DNA of 64,000 nt from an uncultured Verrucomicrobiae bacterium. Lineage in GTDB: Bacteria > Verrucomicrobiota > Verrucomicrobiia > Chthoniobacterales > UBA10450. A program made the translations under genes and the position numbers. Every line of letters starts with the position of its first letter. Positions within the stretch are counted from its first letter, which is position 1. The notes under the pieces are model-generated. The model saw only the letters and a list, made by a program, of their open reading frames with translations, was not told the DNA's origin and did not search any database. The stretch is taken from NCBI GenBank assembly GCA_963772365.1, contig CAVYXA010000004.1, forward strand, positions 96,001-160,000. Direction: 5' to 3'. This document shows, piece after piece, positions 2,495 through 22,640 of the stretch.

Positions 2495-4297
2495 CTACTC
2501 AGCGAACAAGCCGATTCCTTCCGCCATCGAGTGGGCGATTCGTTCCTTGGAAATCCAGCCGCGGATTTCGCTCCCCGAGTTCACGGCCAAATTGCCGGAA
2601 ACTAAAAAAACGTCGGTCCGGTTCGTATGCATTCGGGTCACGATTTCGAACAGCGTCGTGTTTTCACCGATCACGTCGTAATTCAAGTTCGCGGCGTCGC
2701 CCACAGTTTCCGTTTCCGGGCGGCGTCGCATTGCTCGATACGCCATCTCTTCGGTCAAGACCCCTTTAATTTGGCCATCACGTTCGATCACGAACAAGGG
2801 CGGTGTTGCACCCGGTTCCGGCATTTTCTTTCTTAATTCTTCCAAAGTGACTCCAGCTGGCAACAGCGTCATATTTTCGTTCTTCAAATCGCGCGCCAAC
2901 CGCATGTGTTGAAGATTGGTCTGGAGCGCGTCGGGCATATAATGGCCGCGGCGGGCGAGCTTCAGGGTGTAAATGCTTTCTTTGAGCAGCACCTTTCGCA
3001 CTCCGTAACTGATCGCCACCGTAATCGTCATCGGCACGATCACGCCATAATCCCGCGTCATTTCGAAGATCATGACGATCGATGTAATCGCAGCGCTGGT
3101 TGCGCCACCCACCATTCCGGCCATGCCCGCCACGGCAAACGCCGGCGGACTGATGGGCAAGGCCGGAAACAAAACGCCTAACACGCTTCCGTAGGTCGCA
3201 CCCAGAGTTGCTCCCAAATACAAAGAGGGAGAAAAAATCCCGCCGGATCCACCGGAACCGAGAGTCAACGATGTCGCCATCAGTTTAAGCACAAATAACA
3301 GAGCCAACGGTCCCGCGGTCGCTAACACTCCGGACAAAATATCCTGCACTGTCGAGTAACCGATCCCCTGGATGTAATAATGCCCCCATCCCCGCATCAT
3401 CAGATACATCATCACGCCGACGAGCAACATCCCCAGCGTGTGTCGCACGTAGTAATTACCTCGAATCTTTTTCTCAAACAAATCCTCGAAGACATAGATC
3501 GATCGAATGAACAAGGCGGCCGCGCCACCGGCCAGGACTGCGAGCCCGACATAGGAGAGAAGCACCACCGGATTGGTCGCATGATAAAACGACTCGCGAA
3601 ATTCCGGGATGACGAATGACGGATTCGCGCCGAAGAACAACCGACCGATATACGTGGCGGTCGCCGTTGAAATTGCCACGGGCACAAGTGTCCAGACGCT
3701 CACTTCGTGCAACATGATCTCGGCCGCGAACAAAATGCCCCCGATGGGTGTATTGAAGGTTGCCGCGATCCCGCCGCCGGCGCCGGCTGCGATCAAAGTC
3801 ACGCGTTGCCAGGCTGGAATCCGCAGCCATTGACCAAATGTCGATCCGAACGCGGACGCGATCTGGATGATCGGGCCTTCCCGTCCCACCGAGCCACCGC
3901 TGCCGATGGAAAGAGCTGAGGCCATCGCTTTCACGAAAGCAACGACAGGACGAATCAAGCCCTTATTGTAATAAATTGCGTCCATCACTTCGGGGACGCC
4001 GTGGCCCTTTGCTTCGGGCGCAAATGTCTTGACCAGAAACGCCACGCCCAAACCGCCAATCACCGGAGCGAGAATGATCCAGGGACCCCATGGCCCGGCG
4101 GGAGTGTGCGCATTGGCGTCGTAGAAGATCGACAATCGGCCAAGGAAAAAAAGATTGTGGAAAAACGCGATCAGCCCGCGAAAAGCGGCTGCGCCCAAAC
4201 CTGAAACGATCCCGACTATGACTGATAATCCCCAGAGCGAAAATGGACCGATCGGGCGGCTGCGTTTTATCTGTTTATTACTGTCGGGTTCCGCCAT
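2495..4297 (-). CDS. CLC family chloride channel protein with CBS domains
   Basis: GHGVP, GREGP, GGIFSP, SIYTLKL motifs. Confidence 0.93.
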   Translation of the reverse strand: MAEPDSNKQIKRSRPIGPFSLWGLSVIVGIVSGLGAAAFRGLIAFFHNLFFLGRLSIFYDANAHTPAGPWGPWIILAPVIGGLGVAFLVKTFAPEAKGHGVPEVMDAIYYNKGLIRPVVAFVKAMASALSIGSGGSVGREGPIIQIASAFGSTFGQWLRIPAWQRVTLIAAGAGGGIAATFNTPIGGILFAAEIMLHEVSVWTLVPVAISTATATYIGRLFFGANPSFVIPEFRESFYHATNPVVLLSYVGLAVLAGGAAALFIRSIYVFEDLFEKKIRGNYYVRHTLGMLLVGVMMYLMMRGWGHYYIQGIGYSTVQDILSGVLATAGPLALLFVLKLMATSLTLGSGGSGGIFSPSLYLGATLGATYGSVLGVLFPALPISPPAFAVAGMAGMVGGATSAAITSIVMIFEMTRDYGVIVPMTITVAISYGVRKVLLKESIYTLKLARRGHYMPDALQTNLQHMRLARDLKNENMTLLPAGVTLEELRKKMPEPGATPPLFVIERDGQIKGVLTEEMAYRAMRRRPETETVGDAANLNYDVIGENTTLFEIVTRMHTNRTDVFLVSGNLAVNSGSEIRGWISKERIAHSMAEGIGLFAE

Positions 4298-4418
4298 GGA
4301 CGATACATTTGGATTTTTCGAATCGACTCCTCATGGCGGACGTTCGATTCGCCCGGAGGCATTAAGAATAGGCAGGCAAACCCGACTTAAAGCAAGCCTA
4401 TCAAGGAGACAACGGATT

Positions 4419-6101
4419 CTATCTTTCGGCCAATTTCCCCGGGCCCCACAATGCCCTTCCCGGTTTTGCGCCAGTGTGCTCGCCGTCCTTGATCACCTGG
4501 ACGCCGTTCACGAAAACGTGCTTCACGCCGATTGCGTATTGCTGTGGTTTCTCATAGGTAGCGCGATCGGCGATCGTCGCCGGATCGAACACGACGACGT
4601 CGGCAAACATTCCTTCCTTCAGGAACCCGCGATGATCGAGTCCAAGGTTTGTCGCCGGCAGACCGCTCAACTTATGAATCGCCTCCGGCATCGGGAGCAC
4701 TTTTTCGTCGCGGACATATTTGCCCAGAACACGCACAAAATTTCCGTAAGCACGCGGATGCGGATGAGACTTGAGAAAAACGCCTTCCGGCGCCTGGGAA
4801 GATTCATCGGAACCAAAGGAAATCCATGGCTTGGCAATTTTCTTCTTCACGTTCTCTGCCGACATTACGAAATAGATTGTGTCGATCCGCGATTCATCTT
4901 CGGCGATCAGGTCCATGATCGTTTCGATCGGATCTTTTCCGCGCATTTTTGCCACTTCGGCAAGCGTTTTGCCGGTGAGCGGTTTCAGTTTCTCGGTTTT
5001 GAACCCGACCAGCAGAATCTTATCAGGCGAACCAGCGGCCAGATAAAGGTTTTCCCATTTGTCGCTGTCGATCTTCACCTCGGCGGCAATCTTTTTTCGC
5101 GTCGCCGGATCGCGCAACCGTTTGAACAGCGCGGGATAGCCTCCATCCTGCGTCCACGGCGGAAGACATGCATCTAATCCTGTCGCCGCGGCCGTGTAGG
5201 TGTACATGTCGGCGGTAATTTTTAATCCCTCTTTTTGCGCGGCTTCGATTCGCGCCAGAAAGGGCTCCAACTTGGGCCAATTCTTTTCGCCGGCTGCTTT
5301 AATGTGATAAATCTCGGCTGGAATGTGGGCCTCTCGCGCGATCCGGATCAGTTCGTCCGTCGCTTCGAACAGCTGATTTCCTTCACTGCGCATGTGAGAG
5401 ATGTATTTGCCCTTGTACTTCGCAGCGACTTTGCAAAGCTCGATCAGTTCACCGGTCTTGGCATAAAACGCCGGCGGATAAATCAATGAGCTGCCGATAC
5501 CGAGCGCGCCATCTTCCATGGCCCGGCGCACAATCTCGCGCATCTCATCGAGTTGTTTCGGTGTCGGCTGTTTGTCTTCGAGGCCGATGACATACTCGCG
5601 AACCGTAGTGGCGCCGAGAAATGACGCGACATTGCAGGAAATTCCGTGCTGCTCGAGATAGCGCAGATATTCCGCCAGCGCGTTCCATTTGATGTCGAAC
5701 TTGATGTCCTTCTGCTCGTCGAGCATTCGCTTTTTCATCCGGTCATTGAGCGGACCCATCGACCAGCCTTCGCCCATGATCTCGGTCGTGACACCCTGCC
5801 GGATCTCGCTCTCCGAGCGACCGTCTTGAATCAAAGATTCGTTAGACCAGGAGAGCATGTTGATGAAGCCCGGCGCAACGGCAAGCCCGGCAGCATCGAC
5901 AATCGTTTGCGCTTTCGCGGCCTTGAAATCGCCTAGACCGGCGATGCGGTCGCCGCGAATGGCAACATCGACATGTTGAGCCGGTCCGCCGGTGCCGTCA
6001 TAAACGGTTCCATTTTTAATGATCACATCGAAATCGCCTTGCTCCTCCGCAAGTGCGATGGAGCTCACAAGCAAAACTGCACTGCAAAAAAATGTTCTCA
6101 C
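4419..6101 (-). CDS. N-acyl-D-amino-acid deacylase (D-aminoacylase family amidohydrolase), signal peptide
   Basis: IIKNGTVYDGTG, APGFIN, HPHPRAYGNF, GMFADVVVFDP; likely GTG start at 6101 overlapping the upstream stop (GTGA). Confidence 0.88.
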   Translation of the reverse strand: MRTFFCSAVLLVSSIALAEEQGDFDVIIKNGTVYDGTGGPAQHVDVAIRGDRIAGLGDFKAAKAQTIVDAAGLAVAPGFINMLSWSNESLIQDGRSESEIRQGVTTEIMGEGWSMGPLNDRMKKRMLDEQKDIKFDIKWNALAEYLRYLEQHGISCNVASFLGATTVREYVIGLEDKQPTPKQLDEMREIVRRAMEDGALGIGSSLIYPPAFYAKTGELIELCKVAAKYKGKYISHMRSEGNQLFEATDELIRIAREAHIPAEIYHIKAAGEKNWPKLEPFLARIEAAQKEGLKITADMYTYTAAATGLDACLPPWTQDGGYPALFKRLRDPATRKKIAAEVKIDSDKWENLYLAAGSPDKILLVGFKTEKLKPLTGKTLAEVAKMRGKDPIETIMDLIAEDESRIDTIYFVMSAENVKKKIAKPWISFGSDESSQAPEGVFLKSHPHPRAYGNFVRVLGKYVRDEKVLPMPEAIHKLSGLPATNLGLDHRGFLKEGMFADVVVFDPATIADRATYEKPQQYAIGVKHVFVNGVQVIKDGEHTGAKPGRALWGPGKLAER

Positions 6102-7372
6102 TTTACAAACTCCGGATGGCCGGCTCTCCAAGGATCGTATTTTTTCGCAAATAGAATCCGTTTGTCCAGCGGCGGATGATTGTAAAGCCAAAGTTCAATG
6201 AATCGCGAGGGCCTCGGATCGCTCAGGTTCACTTCGCCCAGGACCTGAAATGCTTGCGCCGCGGCGGCTGTCGAGTGCGGCACGATTCCGTGGATCACTT
6301 CCAGGCCGTAAATGTCGGCCTGATGTTCGTAATGACGCGACATGGCATTGATCAACGGCTCGGCCAGAAAGCTGAGACCAGTCAGGAACAACAAGAAGAC
6401 TGGAAGCGACGCCCAATCATCGATCCCGCGAATGTCCCAACGCGCACCGGATTTTCTCAGAAGCCAGTTTGCGCCGCGAGCGCCGACGTAGAGAAACACG
6501 AGCATCAGCGCGCAGAGAAACAGGATGAGTTTGGGAATGTGCCCGAGGACGTAGTGGCCCATTTCATGGCCAAAGACGAACAGGGTCTGGTCGTTGTTAA
6601 GGCGCTTCATGGTCGTGTCCCACACCACCACGCGTTTCGATGCGCCGACGCCGCTGACGTAAGCGTTGACGGAATTCATTTTCTCGCTGGCGTTCATCTC
6701 GAACATCCGCTGTTCGGGGATCGTTAGGCCGGCGCGGCGGACAATTCTGGAAATCTGCGCCACCAATTCCGGATGCTTCTTCGCCAGCGGCTCGAACTTG
6801 AAAAACAGTGGCTCGATTACGAGCGGCGAAATAAACATGAGGAAGACCACAATCGGGATGCTCACCAGCCAAAAATAAAACCACCACCACCGCGGGCTTC
6901 GTCGAATCATACCATACAGAATCCAGAGAAGCACGGCGCCCAGCGCAGTCGTGAGAAGTTGACCTTTGGTCCAATCCCAACTCCACGAAGCCCAATCCTG
7001 AATGGATTGATCGTATTTGCGCGACAACCATTGGCGATAAATCTCGACCGGTAGAGAGAACAATCCGAGCGTGAAGAGAATTAGCGCACCAAAAATCCAG
7101 GCCTGAACAAAGCGCTTATGGGAAACGCGTTCGGCCCAGTCGCGGTATTTCGGCGCGACCCGCGCGGAGAGCAATCCCATGAGAACAAGTATTCCATAGG
7201 CGACCTCGGCAAAGTGAAGCCGGTATTTCGTGCGCGAAAATGCAACCGCCTTCTCGTATTTTTCAGGCGAAAGATGAAAGCCATTCGGCCGCCGGCTTTC
7301 CTGATTTCCTGTCTGCGCCCCGGCCATTCGCGTCAAAGCGCACAGAAACAGCGTTGCAATTATGATCGGCAT
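6098..7372 (-). CDS. M48 (Ste24-like) membrane zinc metallopeptidase
   Basis: HEMGH zincin motif, NAYVSG, EHQAD, HPPLDKRI. Confidence 0.92.
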   Translation of the reverse strand: MPIIIATLFLCALTRMAGAQTGNQESRRPNGFHLSPEKYEKAVAFSRTKYRLHFAEVAYGILVLMGLLSARVAPKYRDWAERVSHKRFVQAWIFGALILFTLGLFSLPVEIYRQWLSRKYDQSIQDWASWSWDWTKGQLLTTALGAVLLWILYGMIRRSPRWWWFYFWLVSIPIVVFLMFISPLVIEPLFFKFEPLAKKHPELVAQISRIVRRAGLTIPEQRMFEMNASEKMNSVNAYVSGVGASKRVVVWDTTMKRLNNDQTLFVFGHEMGHYVLGHIPKLILFLCALMLVFLYVGARGANWLLRKSGARWDIRGIDDWASLPVFLLFLTGLSFLAEPLINAMSRHYEHQADIYGLEVIHGIVPHSTAAAAQAFQVLGEVNLSDPRPSRFIELWLYNHPPLDKRILFAKKYDPWRAGHPEFVK

Positions 7373-7376
7373 CGAT

Positions 7377-8450
7377 TCAGTGTGCGGTTTCTTTCAGCAG
7401 CTGTGTCAGCCGATCTTTCCACAACGCCGCGATGGTGTGGCTGCCATGACCATGCGTTTTATCGCTGAATGGAATTACAACGGCCCGCCCGTGCGGAACG
7501 CGTTTGATTTCGTGTTCGAGAATTCCAAGCTCTGGCGGATTTATTAAATCATCGGCCGAATTGACCGCCAGCAGGGGCGCCTGGATTTTGTCGAGGTTCG
7601 GGCCCGGATCGTAATCGTGGGAAGCTTCAACTGCGTAAAGCACGTCGGTCGCGTCGTCGATCTTGATAATTTTTTCGACAAACTCGTCGAGCACCGCATC
7701 CGTTTTCGCCAGAGTCGGCGCTTCTTTTTGACGAAGGACCGGGTTGCTGCTCATGAACCAAAGCATCTCGGCAGCGGTGCGCAGGCTTGGCGGTTCCCTT
7801 TTGTAATCGCCGTTATTCCAAGCCGGATCGTTTCGAATGGCGTCAATAACGATCCGGCGCCACGCCCGGTTTCGTCCGGAAATTTGGGTCGGCAGGCTGG
7901 CCAGCGGCAAGAGTGCATCCATGAACTCGGGATGAATTTCTCCCCACAGCCACGTGTGCATTCCGCCCATCGACGTTCCCATGATGAGACGTGCATGGTT
8001 CACTCCTAATCCGTCCGTCAACAATCGATACTGCGCTTCGACCATGTCGATGTAGCCATAGCGCGGGAACTTGGCGTGCAATCCATCGCTCGGTTTGCTC
8101 GATTTGCCGTGGCCGATTCCATCCGGGACCACGATAAAGTACTTGGTCGCATCGAGCGGCTGATCTTTCCCGAAGAGTTCGCCGGCAAACTCGGGTCGAA
8201 TGAATTGCGCACCACTGCCGGTCGTGCCGTGCAGGATCAAGACGGCGTTCGTCGTTTGGCCTGCCGCATTCTTTTCCGGTTTGCCAACAGTTCGGTAATG
8301 AATCCTCAGTTCCGGCAGCGTTTCGCCGGAGGTAAATTTGAAATCGCGAACGATGTAATCCCCTTCGGTCGGGGTCGGGTAATTTGATGCGCGCGATATT
8401 TCGACACCGATAAACAAGAGCAACGCAAGCAGCCGTACCATCGACATCAT
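7377..8450 (-). CDS. Alpha/beta hydrolase, homoserine O-acetyltransferase-like, with apparent signal peptide
   Basis: GTSMGGM nucleophile elbow, HGTTGSG, GHGSH. Confidence 0.85.
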   Translation of the reverse strand: MMSMVRLLALLLFIGVEISRASNYPTPTEGDYIVRDFKFTSGETLPELRIHYRTVGKPEKNAAGQTTNAVLILHGTTGSGAQFIRPEFAGELFGKDQPLDATKYFIVVPDGIGHGKSSKPSDGLHAKFPRYGYIDMVEAQYRLLTDGLGVNHARLIMGTSMGGMHTWLWGEIHPEFMDALLPLASLPTQISGRNRAWRRIVIDAIRNDPAWNNGDYKREPPSLRTAAEMLWFMSSNPVLRQKEAPTLAKTDAVLDEFVEKIIKIDDATDVLYAVEASHDYDPGPNLDKIQAPLLAVNSADDLINPPELGILEHEIKRVPHGRAVVIPFSDKTHGHGSHTIAALWKDRLTQLLKETAH

Positions 8451-9011
8451 TCGGGAATGAGACGATAAGATGCGCCCACTGGCAAGCCGAGTTGCGATCA
8501 AGAGTTATGCCAGGAAAAAAGACAATGCATCGCCGCCGCAGTTTGCGCCCGCAATCGCCGCCCTCGCGCCGGGAAGAAAATATTCAGGTGGGTGGGACCA
8601 AGGTCGGCATGAGAAGCGGAGGCAAGAAATCGGACGAAACCCGGGCGAAACGACGTTCGGCTGGTGTGCGCTGATGATCGGCATAACCGCGGGATGAAAT
8701 AAGACACGAACGCGCAGACGTGAGTGACCAGGGCGACACTTTGCCTAACCGCCCATTGTATGATTTCTCGTGCAAGCAGCGGGCGTGACAGCCGGCCGAG
8801 GGGGGCTTGGGTCTCTAAGCGCGCAGCGTGACGGCAGAGGACTCGTTAGGGAATTAGGGAGCGAGTGTTGCGTTGGCGCGTCGCGTGCCGGGTCTTCTTT
8901 GCCCAAGACGGTGGCCGCGATGCCGTTTCGTTTGATGCAGCGCATCTGCCGCTCGAATCTCTCTTCTCCCAGCGCTCAGGCGTGATCGCCGCCTTGGGCG
9001 ATGACGCCGGC

Positions 9012-9323
9012 TTACGCGTCGATGTGAATAACCTTCTCATCGGCGAGCCGTTTCAGAAAAGGGAGTTCGGAAGAGGCGGCCCAGATGTCCAGCGGGCCAT
9101 CGTGAAAACCGAACAGCTCGTTTCCGCCCTTCTTGAGGCGAAAATCCTGCGTCGCTTTAATCTTGGCGTTTGTGCACCAGGTATCGGTGAGATGCGGAAA
9201 GTCTGCAGAAAGATAATTCCGACCGTCGATTGTTGCGACGGAGTCACCGCCCGTATCCTTGAACAACCGACGAAAAAATTCCGAATAGCGGGTCGTTCTA
9301 ACTGTGAGTAATCGGTTCTTCAT
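9012..9323 (-). CDS. Putative immunity protein for the Rhs toxin (103 aa)
   Basis: ATG overlaps the Rhs stop (TAATG); small ORF directly downstream of the toxin domain; no family recognised. Confidence 0.7.
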   Translation of the reverse strand: MKNRLLTVRTTRYSEFFRRLFKDTGGDSVATIDGRNYLSADFPHLTDTWCTNAKIKATQDFRLKKGGNELFGFHDGPLDIWAASSELPFLKRLADEKVIHIDA

Positions 9324-12300
9324 TAACCCCCGCCACCCCGCCATGTACCGATAACGGCGCGCAAGTTTCTCAAAAAATTGCCGCTCTGTTGGGGCAAATG
9401 GTGGGTTCCGAGACCGTTTCCCCAATCCAAATGGAAGTGCGTTCCCTCTTGCCATTCTCCGGCATTTTTCCAGCGGCCGTATTCAAATCCTCGGAATCTC
9501 GCAAGCTTTAACCCTGCGGCGGTGACCAGAGCCTCCTGCGATACCGTCCCCAAATACTTGCTGATAGCGGTATCTTTGGCACACGGGTCGTAACGATCTG
9601 AAAACGGATCGGCGAACGGAATCAAACCATCTAAACCGGCATAGGCACCTTGTTCAAAATCTGCGGCCCGGTAGTTATCCCATCCCCCGTTGAATCCTTC
9701 GTAATCGCCCACGCCCCACGTCGCTGGATTAGTCAGATACCAAAGACCGAGAGGATCTGTCAGGTTGACGGGATCGTTCCCGACGTAGCCGTACAGATTC
9801 ACGCCTCCATCCTCCCCGATTGGATCGCGGCTTAGCCATCTTGCAGCCACAGCATCGTACTCACGCGTGAGGCTGAAATTCAGACTGCTTCCACTGTGAA
9901 GATAAAATCCTGTAAAGCCGAAATCGGCGTCCTGACCGCCGCTTACCTTGGTTCGGTTACCGTAGGGATCGTAATCGTAACGCGCCTTGATTGCCCCGGT
10001 GCTATTTGTCATCTCCCGGATACTGCCGAGGTGATCACGCAGGTAATAGAAAAGCGTGTTGCCGCTGACAGTCTGCACCCCCTGGGCGTAATAGCGCTTA
10101 ACCACCGCATTGCTATTGTTGCGCTGCTCAGCGACTGTTACCCCCTCCCACACGAATTTCTTTGTGCTGTTGACCGTGTTCCCTGTCTTCTCCACGATCT
10201 TGACACGTCGGCTTAAGCCATCGTAGGTAAATTCGCTTCGATTCGTGGTCCCGGTGTAATTGATTGCCACCAGTCGACTGGCTGCGTCCCATTCGTAGGT
10301 CTTCGTTGCGTCATCAGTCAGATTGCCGTTTAGATCATACGAGAACGTCCGGTTCGAGCCGGAAGAAGCCGTGACCTGATAGTTGTTCGTCTTGACATTC
10401 CCATTCGTATCGGTCGCAACTACGGAGACCGTGTTGTTCCCCGGAACGACATCCACCACTCCGTCGAAATTTCCTGCCCCGTCCACCGTGGCCGCGTTTC
10501 CGCCTACTGTCACGGTCGAGGGTTCATTCACCGTCCCTCTAAAATGCAGCTTGCCTCCTCCGTTCTGGCTCGTCAGTTGATTGAGCTCGTTATAGTTCGA
10601 GGTCGTGATTGTGCTCCGCTCCTGGTTGGTATAGCGGTTGCCAGCCGCGTCGTAATCGTAGTCGTACTGCTTGAGCACTGCCCCGCTTTGCACTTTCTTT
10701 TGCAGCGCACTGCTCAATTGATCAGCCGAATCATATCTGAGAGTGTACGTGCTCGCCGTATTGGCAGCTCCCTGTCTTACCGTCCAACTCGTGATATCGC
10801 CCGCTGCATTGTAGAGATAATCGAACTGCGAAATAATGGCTGCGGAAGGGTTAAGGTTCTTGATCTGTTTCAGGCGCTGATCGCCCAGATTGTCGAAGTA
10901 AGCATACTGAATCTTCTGGCCACCAGGGATATCCTCATGATCAAGTCGGCTGGTCGTGTTCACGTAACTGTAATTAAATGTGCCCAAGACATTGGTCACG
11001 CTCTGCACACGGCCCAATGAGTCATACACCATCGAAGCAGCATTCGCCGCACCATTGATCGAGCGGCCAATCGCCCGGCCCAGCTCATCATACGAGTAGG
11101 TAATGGTGTCGTTGTTGAGCGAGCCATCAACGCTCGCCAGGCGAGCCGAACCGAGCGCGGGCGGCACTGGTACCGGATTGTAACCGTAGCTCGTCAAGCC
11201 GGTACCGTCGTTCATGCTCGCCACCCGGTTGTAAACCGGATCGCAGGTGTACGTGACGCTTGGCGTGGCGATCTGCGCGTTCGTGTAACTGATCTGTTGG
11301 AGGTTGTTGTCGAGGAAATAGCCGTAATTGGTCGTTTGCCCTTTGGCATCAGTCATCGATTTGAGCCGGCTGGTTGTGTCCTCGTATGTGTAATGGGTCG
11401 AGTTTTGGTCGGCATAAATCTTTTCCGTGACTCTGCCCTGAACGTCCCGCACCCAATTGGTCGTGTTGTGGTTTGGATCGGTGATGCCATCCAGGCTGCC
11501 GCAGTTGCACCAATTGTACACCGTGATCCGGTAAAGCGGATCTTGCATCACGATCAGGCGGCGAAGGGCATCATGCCAGTTGTGGCTCCAGCGCCCCAGC
11601 CGGTCCCGGGTCCATTCCGGATCAAGGCGGTCGTAGGTGGTTTCCTCGTAAGTGCCGTCGGGATAGGTGACCTTCGCGATCCGGTCCATTGTCTTCGTGG
11701 GGTCACCGCCAATCGCGTCGTAGTCAATCGTGACCGCGTATCCTTCCGAATCGGTTGCCGTGCGCAGCCGGCCAAAACCGTCGTAAGCAAATGAAGTAAT
11801 CGCACCCGCCACAGGCCCCGTGATGCTCTGGAGATAGCCACTGTTGTCGTAGGCGTAGGTCGTGACTTCGTTTTTTGCGTTTGTAATCGTGTGAATCTGG
11901 CCGTTTGCATAGTAGTCGTAAATCGTGGTCTGGCCCGAAGCGTCCGTCGCGGTGAGGGGCTCGTGTTGTGCGTTGTAGGTATAAGCAGCGACCTTGTCGG
12001 CCGCTTGCCCTTCTGGATCAAGACTGGCTCCGGCCGGGTTCCGTTGATACACGGTGAGCAGGTCGATTCCGTTGGCGTCGTAAGCGTAGCTGGTAACCCG
12101 ACCCAGCGGGTCGGTCACCTTGGTTGTTTTGCCGAAGCCATTGTATTCGTATTGATAAAGCTGGGTAGTGCCGTCATCCATGACACGCGCAACCTTGGAA
12201 GGTTTAAAGATCGTAACGTTCCCCGTCCCGGCGGGCCAGGTCTGCCCGGGATAATTGTTCCAGACCCGATCCTCGAACGGCATTTTGCTGCTTTCGGGGA

Positions 12301-14551
12301 CATCGGAAGCGACATTGATGTCTTCAGTGTGGAGCCAGTGGGTGATGCGCGCCTTGGTGTAGACTCCAGGCGCTTCCGCCATCGCTTTCTTGTCCCAATA
12401 GAAGGTGTCCCGATAATTAATGTATTGGTTGAAGGTGGCGATCTCGGGCGGAACCGTATTGCCTGATTCCGAGAACGGAATGGCTGAGACATTGTTATTA
12501 TATTCGACCCGTTCTTTGGCGCCCTGAGGATCGGTGACTTCAAGCCAGCGATAGCTCGAGCCGGATTCGCCCATGGCGAAGAGCGTATCACCGTATGGCG
12601 TCGTCATTTTGTTGATGAAATCGCCCGTATCGTAGGTGAATTCCGAAACGAGACCAATCGAGTCGGTAATCTTCCACAGTTGCCCGGCTTCGTTGTACTC
12701 CAGTGTGGCGACCCGGCCAAATGGATCGGTCACCTTGGTTACTTTTAGTGGGTCTCCGGTCAGCTCGTAGCTTAGAGTCGTCACCTGACCGATCGCGTCC
12801 GTGATTGCAACCAGGCGAAAGGTCCCATCGTAAGAATAGGCGAGCGCGTTCCCGTGAGGGTCGATTGACTGAGTCATAAACAGCTTGCGCGCCACCGGGG
12901 CGCCATCTGAGACCGCGAAAATCTGCCGAGAACCGTCAGGGAACCGCTTCTCGTATTGATCGGTTCCCAGCTTGACCAGGCTAACCTGGGTCTCGCGTTG
13001 CGGCGCATAGCTTTGAGTGCCGGAGTTAAATCCATTGTAGTGCAGCGTTCCGCCTCCCGGTCCGTAAGCAGTGGCGTCTGCGGCTTCATTGGCCGGATCG
13101 ATGACGATGTAGCTGATCCAATTGAAGCTCCACTTGTTCCCCAGATTGGAATAGGTTGGGGTTTGTACAGGCGCGACCTCGCGCTGCTGATAGGAAACGG
13201 CAAATTTTACTGCGGGTCCGACCGGCGGCGCATAGCTGACCGGTGTGTCGGTGATCGTGAGACTGACCCGGGCGGAGTCGACGTTGTAGTCTGCCATGCC
13301 ATCCGAGCCGCCACATTCTGGCTTAGGACATTTGACCGACGGAGCCACACACGGCGGAGGCGGCTCCGAATTACTGCCAGCGTTGCCCTTCCCCCAGACG
13401 TTCTTTCCTTCCGCTTCGCTGACCGGCTGCCAACCACTGGGCAGATCGCCCGCCGGTACAAGAAAGTAGCCCGACTGCTCCTCGTCGATCGTCTGCTGCG
13501 TGAGGAGCGTGTCGTCGCCAAACGTCGGATCCTGGGCGCGGAACCTTCCATCCTTTTCCTCGATTAAGGCGGCGTAATGGCCTACCCGCCAATTGATCAC
13601 CGAAGGAACGATTATCCTTGCTCCAAGTGAACGCTTTGCCATCTGATATCTCAAACCGAGTTTATCAGCCAGCTTTTTGACCTGAACCAATGACATCCCC
13701 CTATTAGTCGAGGCAGAGGCGAGAATCTCCTTTTGCCGATCGGGGCCGCCCAAATGCGAGGCGGCAAGAATCTGTTTCAACGCCATCGGACCACACCGAA
13801 AAGCGTCTTGCGGACGTGTCCTCATTAACGCTAACCCTTGTCGCGCCGTGGCGACTTTTTCCGTCGCCGCGCCTCGAACGTCGCGGTGATCAATCTCGCC
13901 AAACAGAGCCTCAAGGCGATCTGCTCGGCCCAGCCTGGCATTGAGCTGAGCGAGCTCACCCAAAACATAGTCAGCCAGCGCTCGCTGGCGTGGCTGGGTT
14001 GCCTTTGCGACCAGGGGCCACGCCTCTTCCCAAGCGTCCAGTGCTTTGGACCAGTGACCAGTCGCGCGCCAAATCGCTCCCAAATTGGCGAGCAATGCTG
14101 CTCGCCAAGGGGAAGCAGGGAACTGATTGAGGAAACTAGTAAATCCATCGGCCGCTTCAGGATTGTTCCGGGCAGCGAAATCTTTGATGATCGTTGCCAA
14201 CGCGAAATTTTCCGACGGTGAGGTCCTGCCGCCAACCGGGATCAATGGTTCCCGAAATACGCGTGCCGCTTCAAGCTCACCATCGGTGGGGCTGCTGGAA
14301 AAGTGCATTGCCGATCGCTGACTCATAGGCGGCAGCGTACGATTAGGCCTTGCTCCGCTCGTCGAAGCAAAAAACGTGGCTGCTTGTGCTCGTGGCTTCG
14401 GGGCCGACGAAGTTGTTGTCTCAGTGGTAGCCGCGATCAAAATCTGGACAGGCCAAACAGAGACCGCTTGTGATACTGCCACAAGGTATGAGGTGGCGCG
14501 AAGTCGCCAGTTCAATTGTGACATTCTCTTGGCTGACACCGCGCTTTTCAT
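9323..14551 (-). CDS. RHS/YD-repeat polymorphic toxin with N-terminal helical (TPR-like) and C39 peptidase domains, internal Ig-like insert and C-terminal toxin domain
   Basis: YD repeats; core end RWLSRDPIGEDGGVNLYGYVGNDPVNLTDPLGL; C39 motifs CGPMAL, WRVGHY, QDPTFG. Confidence 0.93.
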   Translation of the reverse strand: MKSAVSAKRMSQLNWRLRATSYLVAVSQAVSVWPVQILIAATTETTTSSAPKPRAQAATFFASTSGARPNRTLPPMSQRSAMHFSSSPTDGELEAARVFREPLIPVGGRTSPSENFALATIIKDFAARNNPEAADGFTSFLNQFPASPWRAALLANLGAIWRATGHWSKALDAWEEAWPLVAKATQPRQRALADYVLGELAQLNARLGRADRLEALFGEIDHRDVRGAATEKVATARQGLALMRTRPQDAFRCGPMALKQILAASHLGGPDRQKEILASASTNRGMSLVQVKKLADKLGLRYQMAKRSLGARIIVPSVINWRVGHYAALIEEKDGRFRAQDPTFGDDTLLTQQTIDEEQSGYFLVPAGDLPSGWQPVSEAEGKNVWGKGNAGSNSEPPPPCVAPSVKCPKPECGGSDGMADYNVDSARVSLTITDTPVSYAPPVGPAVKFAVSYQQREVAPVQTPTYSNLGNKWSFNWISYIVIDPANEAADATAYGPGGGTLHYNGFNSGTQSYAPQRETQVSLVKLGTDQYEKRFPDGSRQIFAVSDGAPVARKLFMTQSIDPHGNALAYSYDGTFRLVAITDAIGQVTTLSYELTGDPLKVTKVTDPFGRVATLEYNEAGQLWKITDSIGLVSEFTYDTGDFINKMTTPYGDTLFAMGESGSSYRWLEVTDPQGAKERVEYNNNVSAIPFSESGNTVPPEIATFNQYINYRDTFYWDKKAMAEAPGVYTKARITHWLHTEDINVASDVPESSKMPFEDRVWNNYPGQTWPAGTGNVTIFKPSKVARVMDDGTTQLYQYEYNGFGKTTKVTDPLGRVTSYAYDANGIDLLTVYQRNPAGASLDPEGQAADKVAAYTYNAQHEPLTATDASGQTTIYDYYANGQIHTITNAKNEVTTYAYDNSGYLQSITGPVAGAITSFAYDGFGRLRTATDSEGYAVTIDYDAIGGDPTKTMDRIAKVTYPDGTYEETTYDRLDPEWTRDRLGRWSHNWHDALRRLIVMQDPLYRITVYNWCNCGSLDGITDPNHNTTNWVRDVQGRVTEKIYADQNSTHYTYEDTTSRLKSMTDAKGQTTNYGYFLDNNLQQISYTNAQIATPSVTYTCDPVYNRVASMNDGTGLTSYGYNPVPVPPALGSARLASVDGSLNNDTITYSYDELGRAIGRSINGAANAASMVYDSLGRVQSVTNVLGTFNYSYVNTTSRLDHEDIPGGQKIQYAYFDNLGDQRLKQIKNLNPSAAIISQFDYLYNAAGDITSWTVRQGAANTASTYTLRYDSADQLSSALQKKVQSGAVLKQYDYDYDAAGNRYTNQERSTITTSNYNELNQLTSQNGGGKLHFRGTVNEPSTVTVGGNAATVDGAGNFDGVVDVVPGNNTVSVVATDTNGNVKTNNYQVTASSGSNRTFSYDLNGNLTDDATKTYEWDAASRLVAINYTGTTNRSEFTYDGLSRRVKIVEKTGNTVNSTKKFVWEGVTVAEQRNNSNAVVKRYYAQGVQTVSGNTLFYYLRDHLGSIREMTNSTGAIKARYDYDPYGNRTKVSGGQDADFGFTGFYLHSGSSLNFSLTREYDAVAARWLSRDPIGEDGGVNLYGYVGNDPVNLTDPLGLWYLTNPATWGVGDYEGFNGGWDNYRAADFEQGAYAGLDGLIPFADPFSDRYDPCAKDTAISKYLGTVSQEALVTAAGLKLARFRGFEYGRWKNAGEWQEGTHFHLDWGNGLGTHHLPQQSGNFLRNLRAVIGTWRGGGG

Positions 14552-14554
14552 TCC

Positions 14555-16555
14555 TTAAGGTGAGAGAACCGCGTCAGCGGGTTCAGTTAGCACAATCGTG
14601 GGAGGGGTATGGTCGTTTGGATCGCCCGAGGGAAGCTGCGAACGCGTAGGATCGAGCGGGTAAGCGTCTTGTCCGTCGGGTACGCCATCGCCATCGGAAT
14701 CTGCAGCGAAGGGATTGGTGCCGATCGAGTACCCATAGGTATTCGTGAGACCATCACCGTCGACATCGTTGCTGAGCGGGTCAAAGCCCGCATAATACTC
14801 AGCGCCGTCTGGAACAAGATCTCCGTTCGTGTCCCAATTATAGGGGTCAGTGCCGATTGCTTGTTCTTGTCCGTTCGGAAGACCATCGTCGTCCTGGTCC
14901 AACGCCGGAAAAAGGTATTTCGAATCGAGCGCCCGTATAGCCCCGGCTCTCTCCGCAAAGTTCAAAACATGGTCGTAGACGATCACTTCGGCTATATCGC
15001 CGGCGAAGTTGTCAATGTAAGCTCGACCCAGGAGAGGATCAGAACGAAACGCCACTGTGTTAGTTGTTTCCCGATGTTCCTCTAATCCATCAAAGCGCGC
15101 CACCCATTCGTTCTCCTTCGCACTCACGTTGTAAATGTGATATTCGTCCCAGCTGTGGGGCGGATTGCCTAAGTTGTATTGCACCGTGCTGCCGAAGTCG
15201 TCATAGATGTTCCCGTCAAACCAACAAGGATAACACGCTCCGTAGGTACTGCCGCCAAACGACATCATGCGGTAGTGGCCGCCATCCTTCGCCCCTCGCA
15301 CCACCAGGAAGATCTCCCCCTCCGTTCCCCCGTTCATCAGATTCGGCAGACTTAGCCATTGGTTTCCTCCAAAATGCACAACCGGACGACCATTCAGCTC
15401 GTTCTCCACCAAGGCTGGCTGGTTTGCCCCTGTGTTCTGCACAGCGTGGTTCTCCAAGCCGGATTGATCCACCCAGTAGTCAATTGGATTGGTCGTCGCA
15501 TCGGCCTTTAACCACAAACGCATGTTATTCAATGGCATTCCAACACCGAACGGAGGAAGCGACGCAGTTGCTTCATTCGAGGGTAGCGATAGGCCCGCAA
15601 AATTACTGGCACTGACGCGATACGTATAAGTTTCACCCGCTTGCAGCGCAGCATCGATGTAGCTACGCCCTGGCACCCTTGCAATTTCGGTGAAAGCTCC
15701 AGCGCCTACTTTGCGCTCCACGATGAACTCAGTCGCATCGTTCACTGTAGGGTAATCCCAAATTACGCTCGTTTCATCAGCAGAGATGGCGTGAGCGCCA
15801 AGATTCGTCGGCGTCGTTGGATCTGCCACCAATGCATATTTGCTTCCCAGATATGTGTCCGTCGTTCGGCGCTCCGCAGAGCTCAAGACGCGGTCGTAGA
15901 CGATCACTTCGGCTATATCTCCGGCGAAGTTGTCAACGTAAGCTCGGCCCAGGAGAGGATCAGAACGAAATGCCACGGTGTTCGTTGCTTCTCTGTGTTC
16001 CTCCAATCCATCAAAGCGTGCCACCCATTCGTTCGCTTTCGCACTTACATTGTAGATGTGGTACTCGGGCCAGCTCTGGGGCGGATTGCCTAAATTGTAT
16101 TGCGCCGTGCTACCGAAGTCGTCATAGATGTTCCCGTCGAACCAACAAGGATAACATGCTCCGTAGGTACTAGTGCCAAAGTGCATCATGCGGTAGTGAC
16201 CGCCATCCTGCGCCCCTCGCACCACCATGAAAATCTCGCCTTCGCTTGCCGTGTTCATGAAGTTCGGCAACGTAAAATATTCGCCGCCGCTGAAATGGAC
16301 GATTGGCAATCCGTTTAGACCATTCTGAGTGAAAAATGGTTGCTGACCGCTGTTCGGTTGCGTCGCGTCTGAGGAGTTTCCAGATTGGTCCTGCCAAATG
16401 CTGATCCTTCCATTTGAATCATAAACAACGCCGAAGTCGGCCCGTAGCCAGAGTCTGAGTCCTTCAGTGACTGGCAAAGTTTGAGAGCCAGCCGTCGCCC
16501 TGAGTATCATTGCGAAGCTTAGAACCCGTATGATTCTTCGGCATTCAGTGCGCAC
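14555..16555 (-). CDS. Secreted protein: LamG/concanavalin-like domain, FN3, second LamG-like domain, DxDxDG Ca-binding repeats (start uncertain)
   Basis: LWLRAD..WQDQSGN and FAGDIAEVIVYDRVL occur twice; YTYRVSASNFAGLS (FN3); DQDDDG/DTNGD/DVDGDG/DSDGDG. Confidence 0.85.
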   Translation of the reverse strand: MRTECRRIIRVLSFAMILRATAGSQTLPVTEGLRLWLRADFGVVYDSNGRISIWQDQSGNSSDATQPNSGQQPFFTQNGLNGLPIVHFSGGEYFTLPNFMNTASEGEIFMVVRGAQDGGHYRMMHFGTSTYGACYPCWFDGNIYDDFGSTAQYNLGNPPQSWPEYHIYNVSAKANEWVARFDGLEEHREATNTVAFRSDPLLGRAYVDNFAGDIAEVIVYDRVLSSAERRTTDTYLGSKYALVADPTTPTNLGAHAISADETSVIWDYPTVNDATEFIVERKVGAGAFTEIARVPGRSYIDAALQAGETYTYRVSASNFAGLSLPSNEATASLPPFGVGMPLNNMRLWLKADATTNPIDYWVDQSGLENHAVQNTGANQPALVENELNGRPVVHFGGNQWLSLPNLMNGGTEGEIFLVVRGAKDGGHYRMMSFGGSTYGACYPCWFDGNIYDDFGSTVQYNLGNPPHSWDEYHIYNVSAKENEWVARFDGLEEHRETTNTVAFRSDPLLGRAYIDNFAGDIAEVIVYDHVLNFAERAGAIRALDSKYLFPALDQDDDGLPNGQEQAIGTDPYNWDTNGDLVPDGAEYYAGFDPLSNDVDGDGLTNTYGYSIGTNPFAADSDGDGVPDGQDAYPLDPTRSQLPSGDPNDHTPPTIVLTEPADAVLSP
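14971..16269. repeat. Intragenic direct repeat, about 380 bp (14971-15348 and 15892-16269), encoding the duplicated LamG-like domain
   Basis: The copies align at a constant 921-bp offset with high identity, e.g. ggtcgtagacgatcacttcggctatatc in both. Confidence 0.9.
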
Positions 16556-16839
16556 AATGTGCGATGAATAGAAAATGAAGTTTTGATAGGCAAGACTTTT
16601 TTGTGTCACAAATTTTGAACCAGCGCGATCGGCCAATGCGAACGCTGCCCGCACGGCTCCGAACAGTTGCCCCGTGCAAACAGGGGTAAAGATCCAACTC
16701 TTTTCCGCCAACGCGAACGCGGTGAGACCGTGCCGGGAGTGTCCGCCTGCGCGCCCACGAGAGGTCGCGGGCTGTTATTCCACCTGATGATGTCGCTGCT
16801 ACGCGGCCAGAGCGGTCCGTAAATTGCCCGCTCAGCTTG

Positions 16840-17084
16840 TTATCCGCTTGCACCGGCGGCATGATCGCGAGTTCTTCATCCGGTGTTGGTTTGTAATTTC
16901 GATCTACAAATTCCACACCGGCGCCGATCAAAATTGTTTTGTCGTGGACACGAAGTGGAGGCGTTTGGGAATAGATCTGTTCGAGTAAATCGCCAACTGT
17001 CGATCCTGGCGGAACATCGATATCCGTTTCCGGAACGCCGACTATATCGCGCAGCTGAACGTAAAACTGGACCAGAATTGTCAT
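16840..17084 (-). pseudogene. moaD: MoaD/ThiS sulfur carrier, frameshifted at the terminal GG (possible sequencing error)
   Basis: Ubiquitin-like sequence ending IMPPVQ; CAA-GCGGATAA would read Q-G-G-stop with one more G. Confidence 0.8.
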
Positions 17085-19964: not shown

Positions 19965-20660
19965 TCAATGCCGCAATAGACGACTCGCGAGGGCAATCAA
20001 CCAGCGGCAGAAAAACCTCAGGGCGATCCCAAATGACATTTTCGATCGACCGTGCGCGCGATCCCGAAAAGAGATTGGAATTTCTTTGACCCGGAGATTG
20101 CTTCCGCCGTGAACGATGGTCTCGAAAAGAATTTTGAATCCGCTCGTTGGAGGAGCTATTTTTAAAAGCTGCGATCGAGAGATGGCAAAAAACCCGCACA
20201 TGGAATCGCGGACACCGGTTAGCGGATAAGCCAGAATGGACGCAGTTCGCGACATGATTCTCCGCCACAGCGGCCAACCTGGTGTCGATCCGCCGGGCAC
20301 ATAGCGGCTTCCAATCACCAGGTCCGCCGTTCCGGCGAGGATGGGATCGAGCAAATCTTTGATGCGCTCTGGCGGATGGCTGAGGTCGGAATCCATCACC
20401 ACTACGACGTCACCTTGCGCTGCACTGACGCCAGTCATGATAGCCGCTGCCAGTCCAGGCGCATCGGCGGCCTGGACTATCAATCGGGTTGGGCGATGGC
20501 TGGATAGAGATTGGATTACGGCGGCGGTCGAATCCGTGGAATTACCATCGACAAATAAGATTTCATGTAAAGGGATTGCGGTTTCCAAGATTTTCGCAAC
20601 GAGCGGACCAACGTTTTCGGATTCGTTCAGCGTTGGGACAATGATGGAAACTTTCGTCAT
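19965..20660 (-). CDS. GT2 polyprenol-monophosphomannose synthase-like glycosyltransferase
   Basis: SIIVPTLNE, MDSDLSHPPE, VIGSRYVPGG. Confidence 0.9.
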   Translation of the reverse strand: MTKVSIIVPTLNESENVGPLVAKILETAIPLHEILFVDGNSTDSTAAVIQSLSSHRPTRLIVQAADAPGLAAAIMTGVSAAQGDVVVVMDSDLSHPPERIKDLLDPILAGTADLVIGSRYVPGGSTPGWPLWRRIMSRTASILAYPLTGVRDSMCGFFAISRSQLLKIAPPTSGFKILFETIVHGGSNLRVKEIPISFRDRAHGRSKMSFGIALRFFCRWLIALASRLLRH

Positions 20661-20708
20661 GGCTGACGCTAAACCGGCACGCAGCACAATCTGGAGGACT
20701 CTTGAGAT

Positions 20709-22322
20709 TCAGGCTTCGCCGGAATGGATGATTTGCTTCAATTGCTGAACTACCTGTTTCCGAGCATCGCTATCATCAGCGCAGCCCCACACCGCAATCT
20801 CGAGCATTTGCGCGCCCACTTCGCGCCTTCCATGCAATGCCGCTCGAATACGTCCCCAGGCTGTCCAGTCTTCTTGCTCAGCTGCGGCCACATTTCTGTA
20901 GGACGACCGCGCGTCCCAGTAACAATAGAAGACGTGTAGTGGCACACCATGATCGTCGAACAAATAGGAGCGCAGCGGCAAGTCAGCGCCATTGATGTTG
21001 GCTAACCAGAATCCGCTGTCGCGTATCATGGTGAGGCCACTGGCAGGAAGGCATTTTTCCGGTCGATGGATTTTTACAAAGAGAGCAGCCGTGCGACCCG
21101 GCAGCCAATGAAAGAAGTACATCAGCCAATGGTGGCCATCCGGCGAGGTCCAACCCGCGCCTCCGCCATCGTCGTAGCGAAGCATCCTTGCCGCCTCGGG
21201 TGAGATTGGAACCGACTTGAAGTCCGCCTCGGATTTTGGCCAGGAAACAGCCCAGCGCGAATGGGGCGGTACGCGATGCAACCCGTACCAAAATTGAGCG
21301 CCGATCTCAGACAAAACCAACCAGAGAGTCAGCGCGGCGAGCAAGGGCAACTGCCGGCGGAAACGTTGCGTAATTTGAAAGATGTCGTTTGAGGAGTCGA
21401 GCCGCCGCGCCATTATTTTGCGATTCTCATGCCGGCGCATGAACAGACTCAGAAACCAAAGACCAAAAAGGCAAATCAGCAGAATGGTTAAACCAGCCGG
21501 ATCATGCCAGTTTTCTAAAGCATCGGTCCCGCGGTTCGCTCCGATCCACACCAGAATTGCTGTGCGCACAACATTGCTGATGAATGCGAGGATCCCGCCG
21601 GCCAACAGCAGAAACAGGCGGCGATACATCGTAAATGAGTAGAGTTCGCCCAGAAACAGCGAGATCATCAGTGTGGCTTGGAGTGACCGGACACCGCTGC
21701 AGGCTTCTTCAATTCCAATGAGGCCCGAGGTAACTTCAATCACGTTTCCATGTTGGAGTGCGGGAATGCCGGCGGCATTCAGGCCGGCAACATTGATCGC
21801 AGTCACCGCCCGCATTAGGCCTTGAATTACGAATTGCTCAAACCGAACAGGCCACGGAACAGCCACCAGAACAAAGCAAAAAGGGAAAGCAAAATGCCGC
21901 AGCCACGGCGCGCCGCCGATCAAATAAATTAAGCAAAGAGAAATCGTAAGCGCGATAAAAGCGAGTCCCCAACTGAGCAAGCGCCAATCTGGATTTGCTT
22001 CCGACAGAAATCGAATCGGAAGAAGAAGAAAGCTGAAAACAACAGTGGTAGCGATGGGAAAAGCTCGAGATTTCGGTGCGCTCCGCGATGATGGACGTTC
22101 CGGCCAGCGTTGCCAAAGAAGAAGAAAAATCGCGAGAAATGGAACCGCCCAACCGTAGCTGTACTGAGGGTTAAACGTCCACTCATTGCTCAAATGCTTG
22201 AAAACCTCAGCCCAGAGGAAAACCAAAAAGCCCAGGAACAATGAAGTCGGCCAGAGCGCGGGCGTAGTAGATGTCGATCGGAAAGAAATTGTGCGCGCCA
22301 TTACGGTTTTCATCGCCGGCAT
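20709..22322 (-). CDS. Exosortase family protein with C-terminal extracytoplasmic (EpsI-like) domain (start uncertain)
   Basis: EEACSGVRSL (Cys), SNVVR (Arg), WHD (His); C-terminal HRPEKCLPASG. Confidence 0.9.
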   Translation of the reverse strand: MPAMKTVMARTISFRSTSTTPALWPTSLFLGFLVFLWAEVFKHLSNEWTFNPQYSYGWAVPFLAIFLLLWQRWPERPSSRSAPKSRAFPIATTVVFSFLLLPIRFLSEANPDWRLLSWGLAFIALTISLCLIYLIGGAPWLRHFAFPFCFVLVAVPWPVRFEQFVIQGLMRAVTAINVAGLNAAGIPALQHGNVIEVTSGLIGIEEACSGVRSLQATLMISLFLGELYSFTMYRRLFLLLAGGILAFISNVVRTAILVWIGANRGTDALENWHDPAGLTILLICLFGLWFLSLFMRRHENRKIMARRLDSSNDIFQITQRFRRQLPLLAALTLWLVLSEIGAQFWYGLHRVPPHSRWAVSWPKSEADFKSVPISPEAARMLRYDDGGGAGWTSPDGHHWLMYFFHWLPGRTAALFVKIHRPEKCLPASGLTMIRDSGFWLANINGADLPLRSYLFDDHGVPLHVFYCYWDARSSYRNVAAAEQEDWTAWGRIRAALHGRREVGAQMLEIAVWGCADDSDARKQVVQQLKQIIHSGEA

Positions 22323-22640
22323 AGCGTAGCGAAGTCCGAGCAGGTTGCGAGCCGCTTTGCTCCGCCGTTCATGTGTCCGACTGACTGTGGGTAGGATTGT
22401 TCGCCGAAATTCAATTCGCGGAAATATCCACTCGCCGCGCAAACTGGTCGAAGAGGATTCTATTGTTCTCGATGGTGTGATCGCCGGAGTATTTTTTTTG
22501 ACGGAATTTTCCTTGACCTCAGCGAGCGGGGCTGTCTAAAAGAGAACTCGAAACTACCGTTTTCGTGGGATGCGATTGTTATTGACGAGCGCAGCGCGAA
22601 TATGATAATTATGGAAATCATCAGATAAACATCGAATCTT

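Follow-up and report, generated by a model that had tools for sequence, protein, structure and literature searches.

How the Rhs toxins of diderm bacteria might reach their targets independently of a type VI secretion system (T6SS) or a Tc-type assembly is an open question, and it is raised anew by a three-gene locus in a 64,000 nucleotide stretch of DNA (the window; contig CAVYXA010000004.1, positions 96,001 to 160,000, assembly GCA_963772365.1) from an uncultured Verrucomicrobiae bacterium of the Chthoniobacterales. The locus encodes an adhesin-like partner, a large protein that joins a tetratricopeptide-like (TPR) block and a C39 peptidase domain to an Rhs cage, and a 103 aa protein. The best explanation of the whole, with a probability of roughly 0.65 judged from sequence comparison and structure modelling, is that the Rhs protein is a Sec-exported cage carrying a likely antibacterial toxin, that the partner is an adhesin docked onto the cage by a single strand, and that the 103 aa protein neutralises the toxin. 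The family would thus offer one route to the target, a secreted cage with a clip-on adhesin. Coordinates below are window positions, and all three genes lie on the minus strand:

14555..16555, minus strand: gene of the adhesin-like partner, 666 aa from a GTG, start codon uncertain
9323..14551, minus strand: gene of the TPR-C39-Rhs protein, 1742 aa (open reading frame with Pfam and NCBIfam matches)
9012..9323, minus strand: likely immunity gene, 103 aa (translational coupling; 26 homologues including itself; a 48% identical paralogue elsewhere in the genome)
14426..14551, minus strand: signal-peptide-like N-terminus of the Rhs protein, aa 1-~42 (heuristic)

The tight coupling described in the initial annotation is borne out, as three bases separate the stop codon of the partner from the ATG of the Rhs gene and a TAATG overlap at 9325-9321 couples the latter to the gene of the 103 aa protein. 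Hydrophobic, signal-like N-termini had also been noted on the first two proteins, and both pass a simple heuristic, used in place of SignalP, that the 103 aa protein fails. It is likewise passed by 82 of 102 Rhs homologues (18 of the 120 were set aside with a called start too close) and by 24 of 26 partners, for which the test was lenient and accepted any start among the first 100 codons; the background is 53 of 176 long open reading frames (ORFs) of the window genome and 2 of 600 internal windows. The absence of PAAR, VgrG, WXG or TcB-type modules, reported at first for the window, extends to the genome (3.35 Mb in 6 contigs), where VipB, PAAR, VgrG (TIGR01646), SpvB (PF03534) and WXG100 gave no match at 90.3% completeness while the controls rang. 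The genome does have secretin matches at four places and three T2SSF genes. Since signal-like N-termini occur together with secretin and T2SSF genes, both large proteins would be exported by Sec and then probably by a type II/secretin route.

Of 7,993 clusters scored, 1,025 belong to the family of TPR-C39-Rhs proteins with an E of at most 1e-10; those with a name are mostly from Verrucomicrobiota. GTDB genomes hold the family at 286 sites and metagenomes at 519, with 80 of each kept for study, and it is present in 9 of 401 genomes of a sample of the phylum, the window genome included; no relative turned up in the viral contigs searched. Named close relatives of the window protein come from Spartobacteria and Chthoniobacterales, and Chthoniobacter flavus Ellin428 (L074) is a cultured carrier. 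Residue conservation is given for the best 120 of the 1,025 clusters.

The cage of the window protein matches PF05593 with E 4.5e-45 and TIGR03696 with E 3e-20 (72 bits, cut-off 32.5). Its wall carries an immunoglobulin-like (Ig) insert that lacks its first strand:

9743..13297, minus strand: YD-repeat cage and Rhs core, aa 419-1603 (Pfam, NCBIfam and PDB profile matches)
10367..10555, minus strand: Ig insert lacking strand A, aa ~1333-1395, predicted docking site (coverage of Glucodextran_B; structural match to 1ULV)
10304..10351, minus strand: YD hairpin after the insert, absent from the type II relatives described below, whose partner begins with such a hairpin
14558..14608, minus strand: conserved C-terminal tail of the partner, PPxIxLxxP..P-stop, predicted donor strand A (aligns to intact Big_7)

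The insert spans positions 22-81 of the 83 in Pfam Glucodextran_B, a family matched by 21 of 22 aligned inserts, and a strand-A motif precedes none of 33 insert hits. Its best structural match is glucodextranase 1ULV, with a middling score (Z 7.5, root-mean-square deviation 4.1 over 72). The local sequence data yielded no homologue of the insert that is an intact Ig domain, and the match of the insert to intact Big_7 is weak (E 0.005).

The partners of such insert-bearing loci, here called type I, span 278-3052 aa and carry LamG, RCC1, Ig, FN3, CBM96 or FG-GAP domains (19 scanned). Their sole constant is the end, which usually consists of TSP3-like repeats and PPxIxLxxP, with a stop a few residues on; apart from this terminal strand, which is some 17 residues long, the partner is [15 protein letters not shown]. 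In four intact Big_7 domains, all belonging to one partner, the tail profile aligns with positions 3-17 (E 2.9e-4), and its 30 hits of at least 9 bits are every one C-terminal; run against the PDB it gave nothing useful. The strand-A identity thus rests on the Glucodextran_B coverage of the inserts together with the Big_7 alignment of the tail. The insert has no first strand, and in intact Ig domains it is strand A with which the tail aligns, so the tail is likely to be the very piece that the insert lacks. It is proposed that the final ~17 residues of the partner take the place of the missing strand A in the insert, so that the LamG-like units would hang off the cage wall on a TSP3 stalk; binding at this site is suggested because a missing strand, a matching tail and their co-occurrence come together.

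Co-occurrence was scored in a first set of 92 loci, 68 of which were scorable (at least 600 bp upstream and reaching the core). The first pass gave 21 loci with both, 42 with neither, 4 with the tail only and 1 with the insert only; a regular-expression hit in L076 was dropped by hand. Hidden Markov models (HMMs) for insert and tail, trained on that same set, were negative for the tail in L076; they detected the insert in the four tail-only loci, and in the insert-only locus they showed the tail on a short frame of its own. Judged from spacing and by eye, L132 has both traits in divergent form, which leaves 27 loci with both and 41 with neither. In a fresh set, for which HMMs and thresholds were fixed, 47 of 80 metagenome loci were scorable (six near-duplicate groups and four loci seen before are included), and 41 of the 47 were concordant: 19 with both, 22 with neither, 5 with the insert only and 1 with the tail only. 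Inspection raised this to 45 of 47, as an insert is present in L153 and divergent tails in L173/L174 and in L186. On a quick tree of 67 C39 regions (L123 dropped as short, L132 labelled 'neither') the label changes six times, at least three of them forced, compared with about 21 times in shuffles, and the two traits never part.

The loci with neither trait are informative in their own right. In 34 of the 41 the Rhs protein skips both the insert and the following YD hairpin, leaving a spacer of 18-21 residues, and these loci, called type II, have a different partner: a large adhesin with a signal sequence, which in its mature form starts with one YD hairpin and continues with Ig domains (10 scanned). 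It is the next gene in 32 of the 34 and the upstream gene in one; for the last locus there is a candidate by eye only. The other seven of the 41 keep their own hairpin, and no partner was found for them. The fresh set shows the same pattern: the type II partner accompanies all 19 short-spacer loci, none of the 27 that bear the insert and 2 of the 5 unclassed ones. The consistent upstream partner that the initial annotation proposed to look for is present in 27 of the 68 scorable loci; 34 have the other partner type and seven have none found. Two solutions to docking are predicted, a C-terminal strand that enters a split Ig insert (type I) and an N-terminal YD hairpin that enters a gap in the barrel (type II); an alternative reading of type II is a shorter barrel with no gap. 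The next gene of type II loci is an adhesin of 830-2100+ aa, and their cargo is richer in cysteine (0.038 versus 0.016), as in L053, L057, L075 and the fresh loci L158-L217. The targets of type II may not be kin bacteria, or its cargo may not be toxic.

Prediction of the complex, from the insert and the last 45 aa of the partner with author-made alignments, gave a score of 0.51, which is weak support, compared with 0.00 for the best control; the runs agree in at least 97% of contacts and the partner has a predicted local distance difference test (pLDDT) value of at least 56. In a benchmark the mark was reached by 116 of 157 solved pairs and 2 of 215 mismatched pairs, and the scores up to 0.60 hold only 18 of the 157 solved pairs and both mismatches. 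Such weak support, together with the few independent changes on the C39 tree, would suit a rival account in which the partner is only co-regulated, insert and tail being inherited together as an operon with no binding, and the insert is a small stand-alone β-sandwich; indeed the insert alone folds in the model (mean pLDDT 85). This is nevertheless improbable, given that the only constant part of partners of such different length is a terminal strand and is what the insert lacks, that the tail profile hits are confined to C-termini, and that at this very site the type II partner provides another element which its cage is missing.

The window partner is a 666 aa protein built mainly of two LamG/ConA-like units on either side of an FN3-like domain:

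15824..16474, minus strand: LamG/ConA-like unit 1, aa ~28-244 (Pfam Laminin_G_3 E 1.2e-5, below cut-off)
15566..15814, minus strand: FN3-like domain, aa 248-330 (Pfam fn3 E 5.8e-4, below cut-off)
14912..15529, minus strand: LamG/ConA-like unit 2, aa ~343-548 (69% identical to unit 1 over 212 aa)
14636..14899, minus strand: TSP3-like DxDxDG repeats, likely a Ca-binding stalk (Pfam TSP3_bac E 4e-5 to 1e-4)

Unit 1 has no sequence match in the PDB. The initial annotation had taken the LamG-FN3-LamG protein as the targeting or anchoring subunit; a separate adhesin is supported by the comparative evidence, but the conserved part is the C-terminal strand and not the LamG-FN3-LamG region. The TSP3 repeats, the conserved tail, the TPR block and the Ig insert had all been overlooked. 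Whether the partner faces the target or the producer is a narrower matter. It could tether the cage to the producer's own surface or matrix, in a contact-dependent display like that of WapA: N-terminal LamG domains of toxins exported by the type II secretion system have been suggested to be producer anchors (Zhang 2012, PMC3482391), in bacterial teneurin-like proteins and in WapA the domains for adhesion or wall binding are part of the same chain (PMC13018210, PMC12704120), and long partners of up to ~3050 aa could be stalks. Such a tether is unlikely as an account of the locus, as the binding domains differ strongly even among close relatives (LamG, RCC1, Ig, CBM96, FG-GAP) and no Cys lipobox, sorting tail, C-terminal anchor or membrane anchor was seen in the window partner. 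Because the binding domains vary so widely and no such anchor was seen, selection of a target surface by the partner is somewhat favoured over anchoring of the cage to the producer.

The C39 domain of the Rhs protein is preceded by the TPR-like block and followed by a motif reminiscent of double-glycine leaders:

13817..14302, minus strand: TPR-like helical block, aa 84-245 (profile and structure model)
13448..13813, minus strand: C39 peptidase domain with C253, H325 and D341 (triad, profile, fold)
13385..13432, minus strand: double-glycine-leader-like motif, aa 374-389 (conservation, model, published consensus), predicted cut in cis after G387-K388

A Pfam scan did not call C39 in the window protein; profile and fold comparison do show it. 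The domain (aa 247-368) has a profile match to LahT (6MPZ, E 9e-8), and its model, with a mean pLDDT of 92, matches the same structure with Z 13.1 and a root-mean-square deviation of 2.8 over 118 residues. The Cys-His-Asp triad is kept in all 120 homologues, and the domain is fused here to TPR and Rhs regions, not to an ABC transporter. In the motif W374, V/I385 and G387 are each present in 120/120 sequences, V377 in 111/120 and E381 in 105/120; with K388 taken as -1, W374 falls at -15, V377 at -12, E381 at -8, V/I385 at -4 and G387 at -2. ComC has an aromatic residue at -15. The motif agrees at -12, -8, -4 and -2 with the published consensus for substrates of peptidase-containing ABC transporters (PCATs), L(-12)xxxE(-8)L(-7)xxxxG(-2)G(-1), which forms a short helix at -10 to -4 (PMC6959990, PMC6363468). 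In the model, residues 379-382 form a helix and 386-387 are extended, both at high confidence.

Because this conserved leader-like motif comes after the C39 domain in the same chain, self-cleavage is suggested, and judged from sequence it is rated a little above even odds. It is proposed that C39 binds its own motif, cuts after G387-K388 and frees the TPR-C39 cap from the cage, with a trigger that is likewise conjectural, and that this cut would take the role of the other N-terminal cleavages in T6SS Rhs proteins. In the contact-dependent inhibition (CDI) toxin StbD, a C39 domain does cleave its own chain in cis (bioRxiv 10.64898/2026.05.07.723447). StbD, like Tox-PL-C39 (PMC3482391), also illustrates another role, that of C39 as a toxin, and the domain could here be the weapon, a maturase of other proteins (in the target envelope, or the partner) or a non-catalytic chaperone, with the cargo secondary or non-toxic and concerned with adhesion or signalling. 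A non-processing C39 would suit the loss of the usual oxyanion Gln and the type II loci that are without an immunity-like gene. These roles are nonetheless quite doubtful, since a constant N-terminal C39 with a variable C-terminus is the pattern of a processing domain, the leader-like motif follows in cis, and a small ORF (at most 330 aa, by a lenient test) comes next in 27 of 27 type I loci. The comparative evidence backs, as a prediction, an Rhs toxin that is exported by Sec without a T6SS, has its adhesin encoded separately and processes itself by means of C39.

At the other end of the cage lie the core autoprotease and the cargo:

9743..9826, minus strand: bipartite DPxG-x19-DPxG aspartyl autoprotease motif, D1576 and D1599 (from sequence), predicted cut after L1603
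9326..9742, minus strand: C-terminal cargo, 139 aa, a shared pre-toxin part and a His-rich tip at aa 1686-1729 (82 relatives)

The motif is intact, with the D1576 and D1599 halves 19 residues apart and R1563 present, and it matches the description of the bipartite motif in PMC13018210. As is established for Rhs proteins, it would release the 139 aa cargo inside the cage. Among close relatives the C-termini and the genes that follow vary on a constant body. With an E of at most 0.001, 82 relatives of the cargo were found; the first 80 aa of the cargo are common to other Rhs proteins, and the same His-rich tip occurs on other Rhs bodies. Aligned in 38 sequences, the tip keeps H1707 and H1718 in 38/38 and H1705 and H1717 in 37/38. 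It is envisaged to act as a small nuclease-like toxin, the weakest step of the proposed mechanism, and a metal-dependent nuclease, guessed from the cluster of histidines, comes just short of an even chance. A resemblance of the cargo to MafB (0.90, 119/256 features) was below the threshold of recognition and serves as a lead only.

The 103 aa protein has 26 homologues including itself; it had no hit in the atlas that gave the MafB lead and none in 400 other genomes of the phylum. No second locus that pairs the window tip with its gene was found, and a candidate second pairing of a homologue with an Rhs was rejected as that Rhs is without the window tip. On sequence, the His-rich tip and the 103 aa protein are candidates for new toxin and immunity families. 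The 48% paralogue of the 103 aa gene (L023:6998-7321, that is G000:C1 1,247,000-1,247,320) stands by itself in a run of unrelated short ORFs, with an IS110 transposase on one side and an integron-like integrase on the other, and looks like an orphan immunity cassette.

Taken more broadly, the family may be a widespread one of Rhs toxins independent of an injection machine, with a dedicated wall port filled by a separately secreted adhesin strand, in two solutions, and an N-terminal cap opened by C39 through an internal leader of the double-glycine type; this wider claim stands only just above evens. Several points weigh against the reading of the locus as a secreted, toxin-bearing cage with a docked adhesin. 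The first-set HMMs scored their own training loci, five loci were re-classed post hoc and one more by eye. With only 3-6 changes of label on the tree, and kin that share labels, joint inheritance of an operon could explain the co-occurrence. L149/L150, one locus in two assemblies, has the insert and no adjacent partner; it is a second insert-bearing Rhs behind another Rhs and a small gene, on contigs that begin inside the first Rhs. The complex score lies in the weak band, and two halves of one Ig domain tend to reach the mark through their similarity. The LamG matches fall below the Pfam cut-off; sugar binding is putative. The leader-like motif departs from the consensus with K at -1 and G/A at -7, and the NCBIfam leader models run on it gave no match. 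Six residues ahead of the catalytic Cys, where the oxyanion Gln is usual, 119 of 120 homologues have Pro; in LahT the distance to this Gln is 4.3 Å, and the His may serve instead (PMC6363468). Neither the cargo and its tip (Pfam, PDB) nor the 103 aa protein matches a family, and the small gene after the Rhs gene is missing in 30 of 34 type II loci, which misfits a self-toxic cargo there. Finally, the route of the cargo from a free cage across the target envelope is unexplained.

The locus is set among housekeeping and envelope genes, with two CLC channels, an amidohydrolase, an M48 protease and a hydrolase at 746-8501 and an amidase, GT2, the exosortase EpsH and a TPR protein at 19965-25076. 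Its GC content is level with the flanks, and no sign of a mobile element was seen in the flanking genes or the GC profile. Scans of the locus for promoters and terminators gave chance level only, and a tRNA scan found none. Just upstream, a ThiS/MoaD-like ORF (16545-17084, minus strand) runs on about 100 codons into the partner start. A terminal GG is usual in ThiS/MoaD-like proteins; this ORF is without one and looks frameshifted near 16,845, possibly through a sequencing error.

Related cages and cargo modules occur elsewhere. Three cages from the same organism family (L027:6497-10960, L030:4633-9129 and L032:5690-10432) are without TPR-C39 and have variable N-terminal domains; two have a complete hairpin and no insert and one a different wall insert, and no partner was found. 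At L052:15300-17243, L131:1030-3448, L132:4042-4536 and L149/L150 there are downstream Rhs copies, partial or in tandem, in which the Ig insert is retained, which suggests recombination of orphan cargo modules at a point upstream of the docking site. The window genome itself holds a second long Rhs (1855 aa, DUF6531) at L021:7029-12596 (G000:C1 ~777-782.6 kb), near whose end there is a weak Phage_GPD/VgrG-like match (31.3 bits, no single stretch passing), though no VgrG gene was found in the genome. At L022:6200-13302 (G000:C3 ~399-406 kb) lies an array of Rhs fragments with C-termini and small genes, broken by repeated transposase-like pieces. L020:8296-12837 (G000:C1 ~1,080,300-1,084,840, minus strand) encodes three short ORFs of 204-240 aa in which a signal-like N-terminus is fused directly to the last ~40 aa of an Rhs core, with a variable C-terminus behind it; small genes come after each of the three. 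These units, cage-less combinations of signal, autoprotease and cargo, adjoin a phage integrase, an AbiEii gene and a transglutaminase-like gene, and one of them shares the pre-toxin region of the window Rhs protein (47% over 143 aa).

The initial annotation did not recognise the architecture as characterised, and the literature searched, which leaves most subscription journals uncovered, likewise holds no description of the C39-Rhs family or of a docking site in an Rhs wall; in PMC3482391 C39 figures among the toxin domains and LamG as an anchor within the same chain, and the large additional file of that paper may list such architectures. Within that literature the insert would be the first protein docking site in the wall of an Rhs protein, in an abundant lineage, the Verrucomicrobiota, with almost no characterised weapons. 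By its sequence the locus is a member of the Rhs polymorphic toxins, with a predicted split-domain docking site, and is not a T6SS Rhs, Tc, WapA or umbrella toxin.

With the T6SS Rhs proteins RhsA, Tse5 and Tse15 (7Q97, 8CP6, 8UY4) it shares the YD cage, the bipartite DPxG core, the variable C-terminus and the small downstream gene. It differs from them in its signal-like N-terminus, in a TPR-C39 cap that replaces PAAR/prePAAR, in the Ig insert of the wall and the separate adhesin, and in that no T6SS marker was found in the 90.3% complete genome. N-terminal cleavage also occurs in T6SS Rhs proteins, and the available text of PMC8765631 gives its mechanism in RhsA as unknown; the family described here would name a dedicated enzyme and a site for such a cleavage. 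As to the B-C shell of Tc toxins, there is no PF03534 in the window genome, and TcC chains match only at E 1e-7 to 1e-4. The C39 domain shares its fold, its Cys-His-Asp triad and a leader-like motif in register with the PCAT peptidases (LahT 6MPZ, ComA, PCAT1) and StbD; unlike the former it has no ABC transporter fusion, a motif that is C-terminal to the peptidase and ends in G-K, and Pro for the oxyanion Gln, and in StbD the C39 domain is itself the toxin (bioRxiv 10.64898/2026.05.07.723447).

WapA of Bacillota is likewise a Sec-exported Rhs toxin with immunity and no injection machine, in which the wall-binding region is part of the same chain and is cut before the DUF6531 domain (PMC12704120); here the adhesin is a separate gene, the N-terminus is TPR and C39, and the lineage is diderm. 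Bacterial teneurin-like proteins share a Sec-exported YD shell, variable adhesion modules and a toxic C-terminus, and the window cage matches 9IFO at E 2e-18, but their adhesion domains are fused N-terminally, they have an FN-plug/NHL superfold, and no C39 is described in the available text (PMC13018210). The window Rhs protein has no Pfam match to NHL (the HMMs of the teneurin paper itself were not used). In chaperone-usher pili another chain lends the strand that an Ig fold lacks at its edge; there it is the last strand (G), and it comes from an N-terminal extension. In the locus described here it would instead be the first strand (A) that is donated, from a C-terminus and on a toxin cage. 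The umbrella toxins of Streptomyces (UmbA-B-C-D) also carry separately secreted, variable lectin subunits on a polymorphic toxin scaffold with an immunity gene downstream, and are built on a ring of ALF repeats with the UmbB adaptor and an inactive trypsin domain (PMC11062931), whereas the Verrucomicrobial system has a YD cage, one predicted docking site and an apparently active peptidase, and no adaptor was seen (UmbB itself was not searched for). By analogy, the locus would work most like the umbrella toxins and WapA, and it would represent a Gram-negative parallel of the former.

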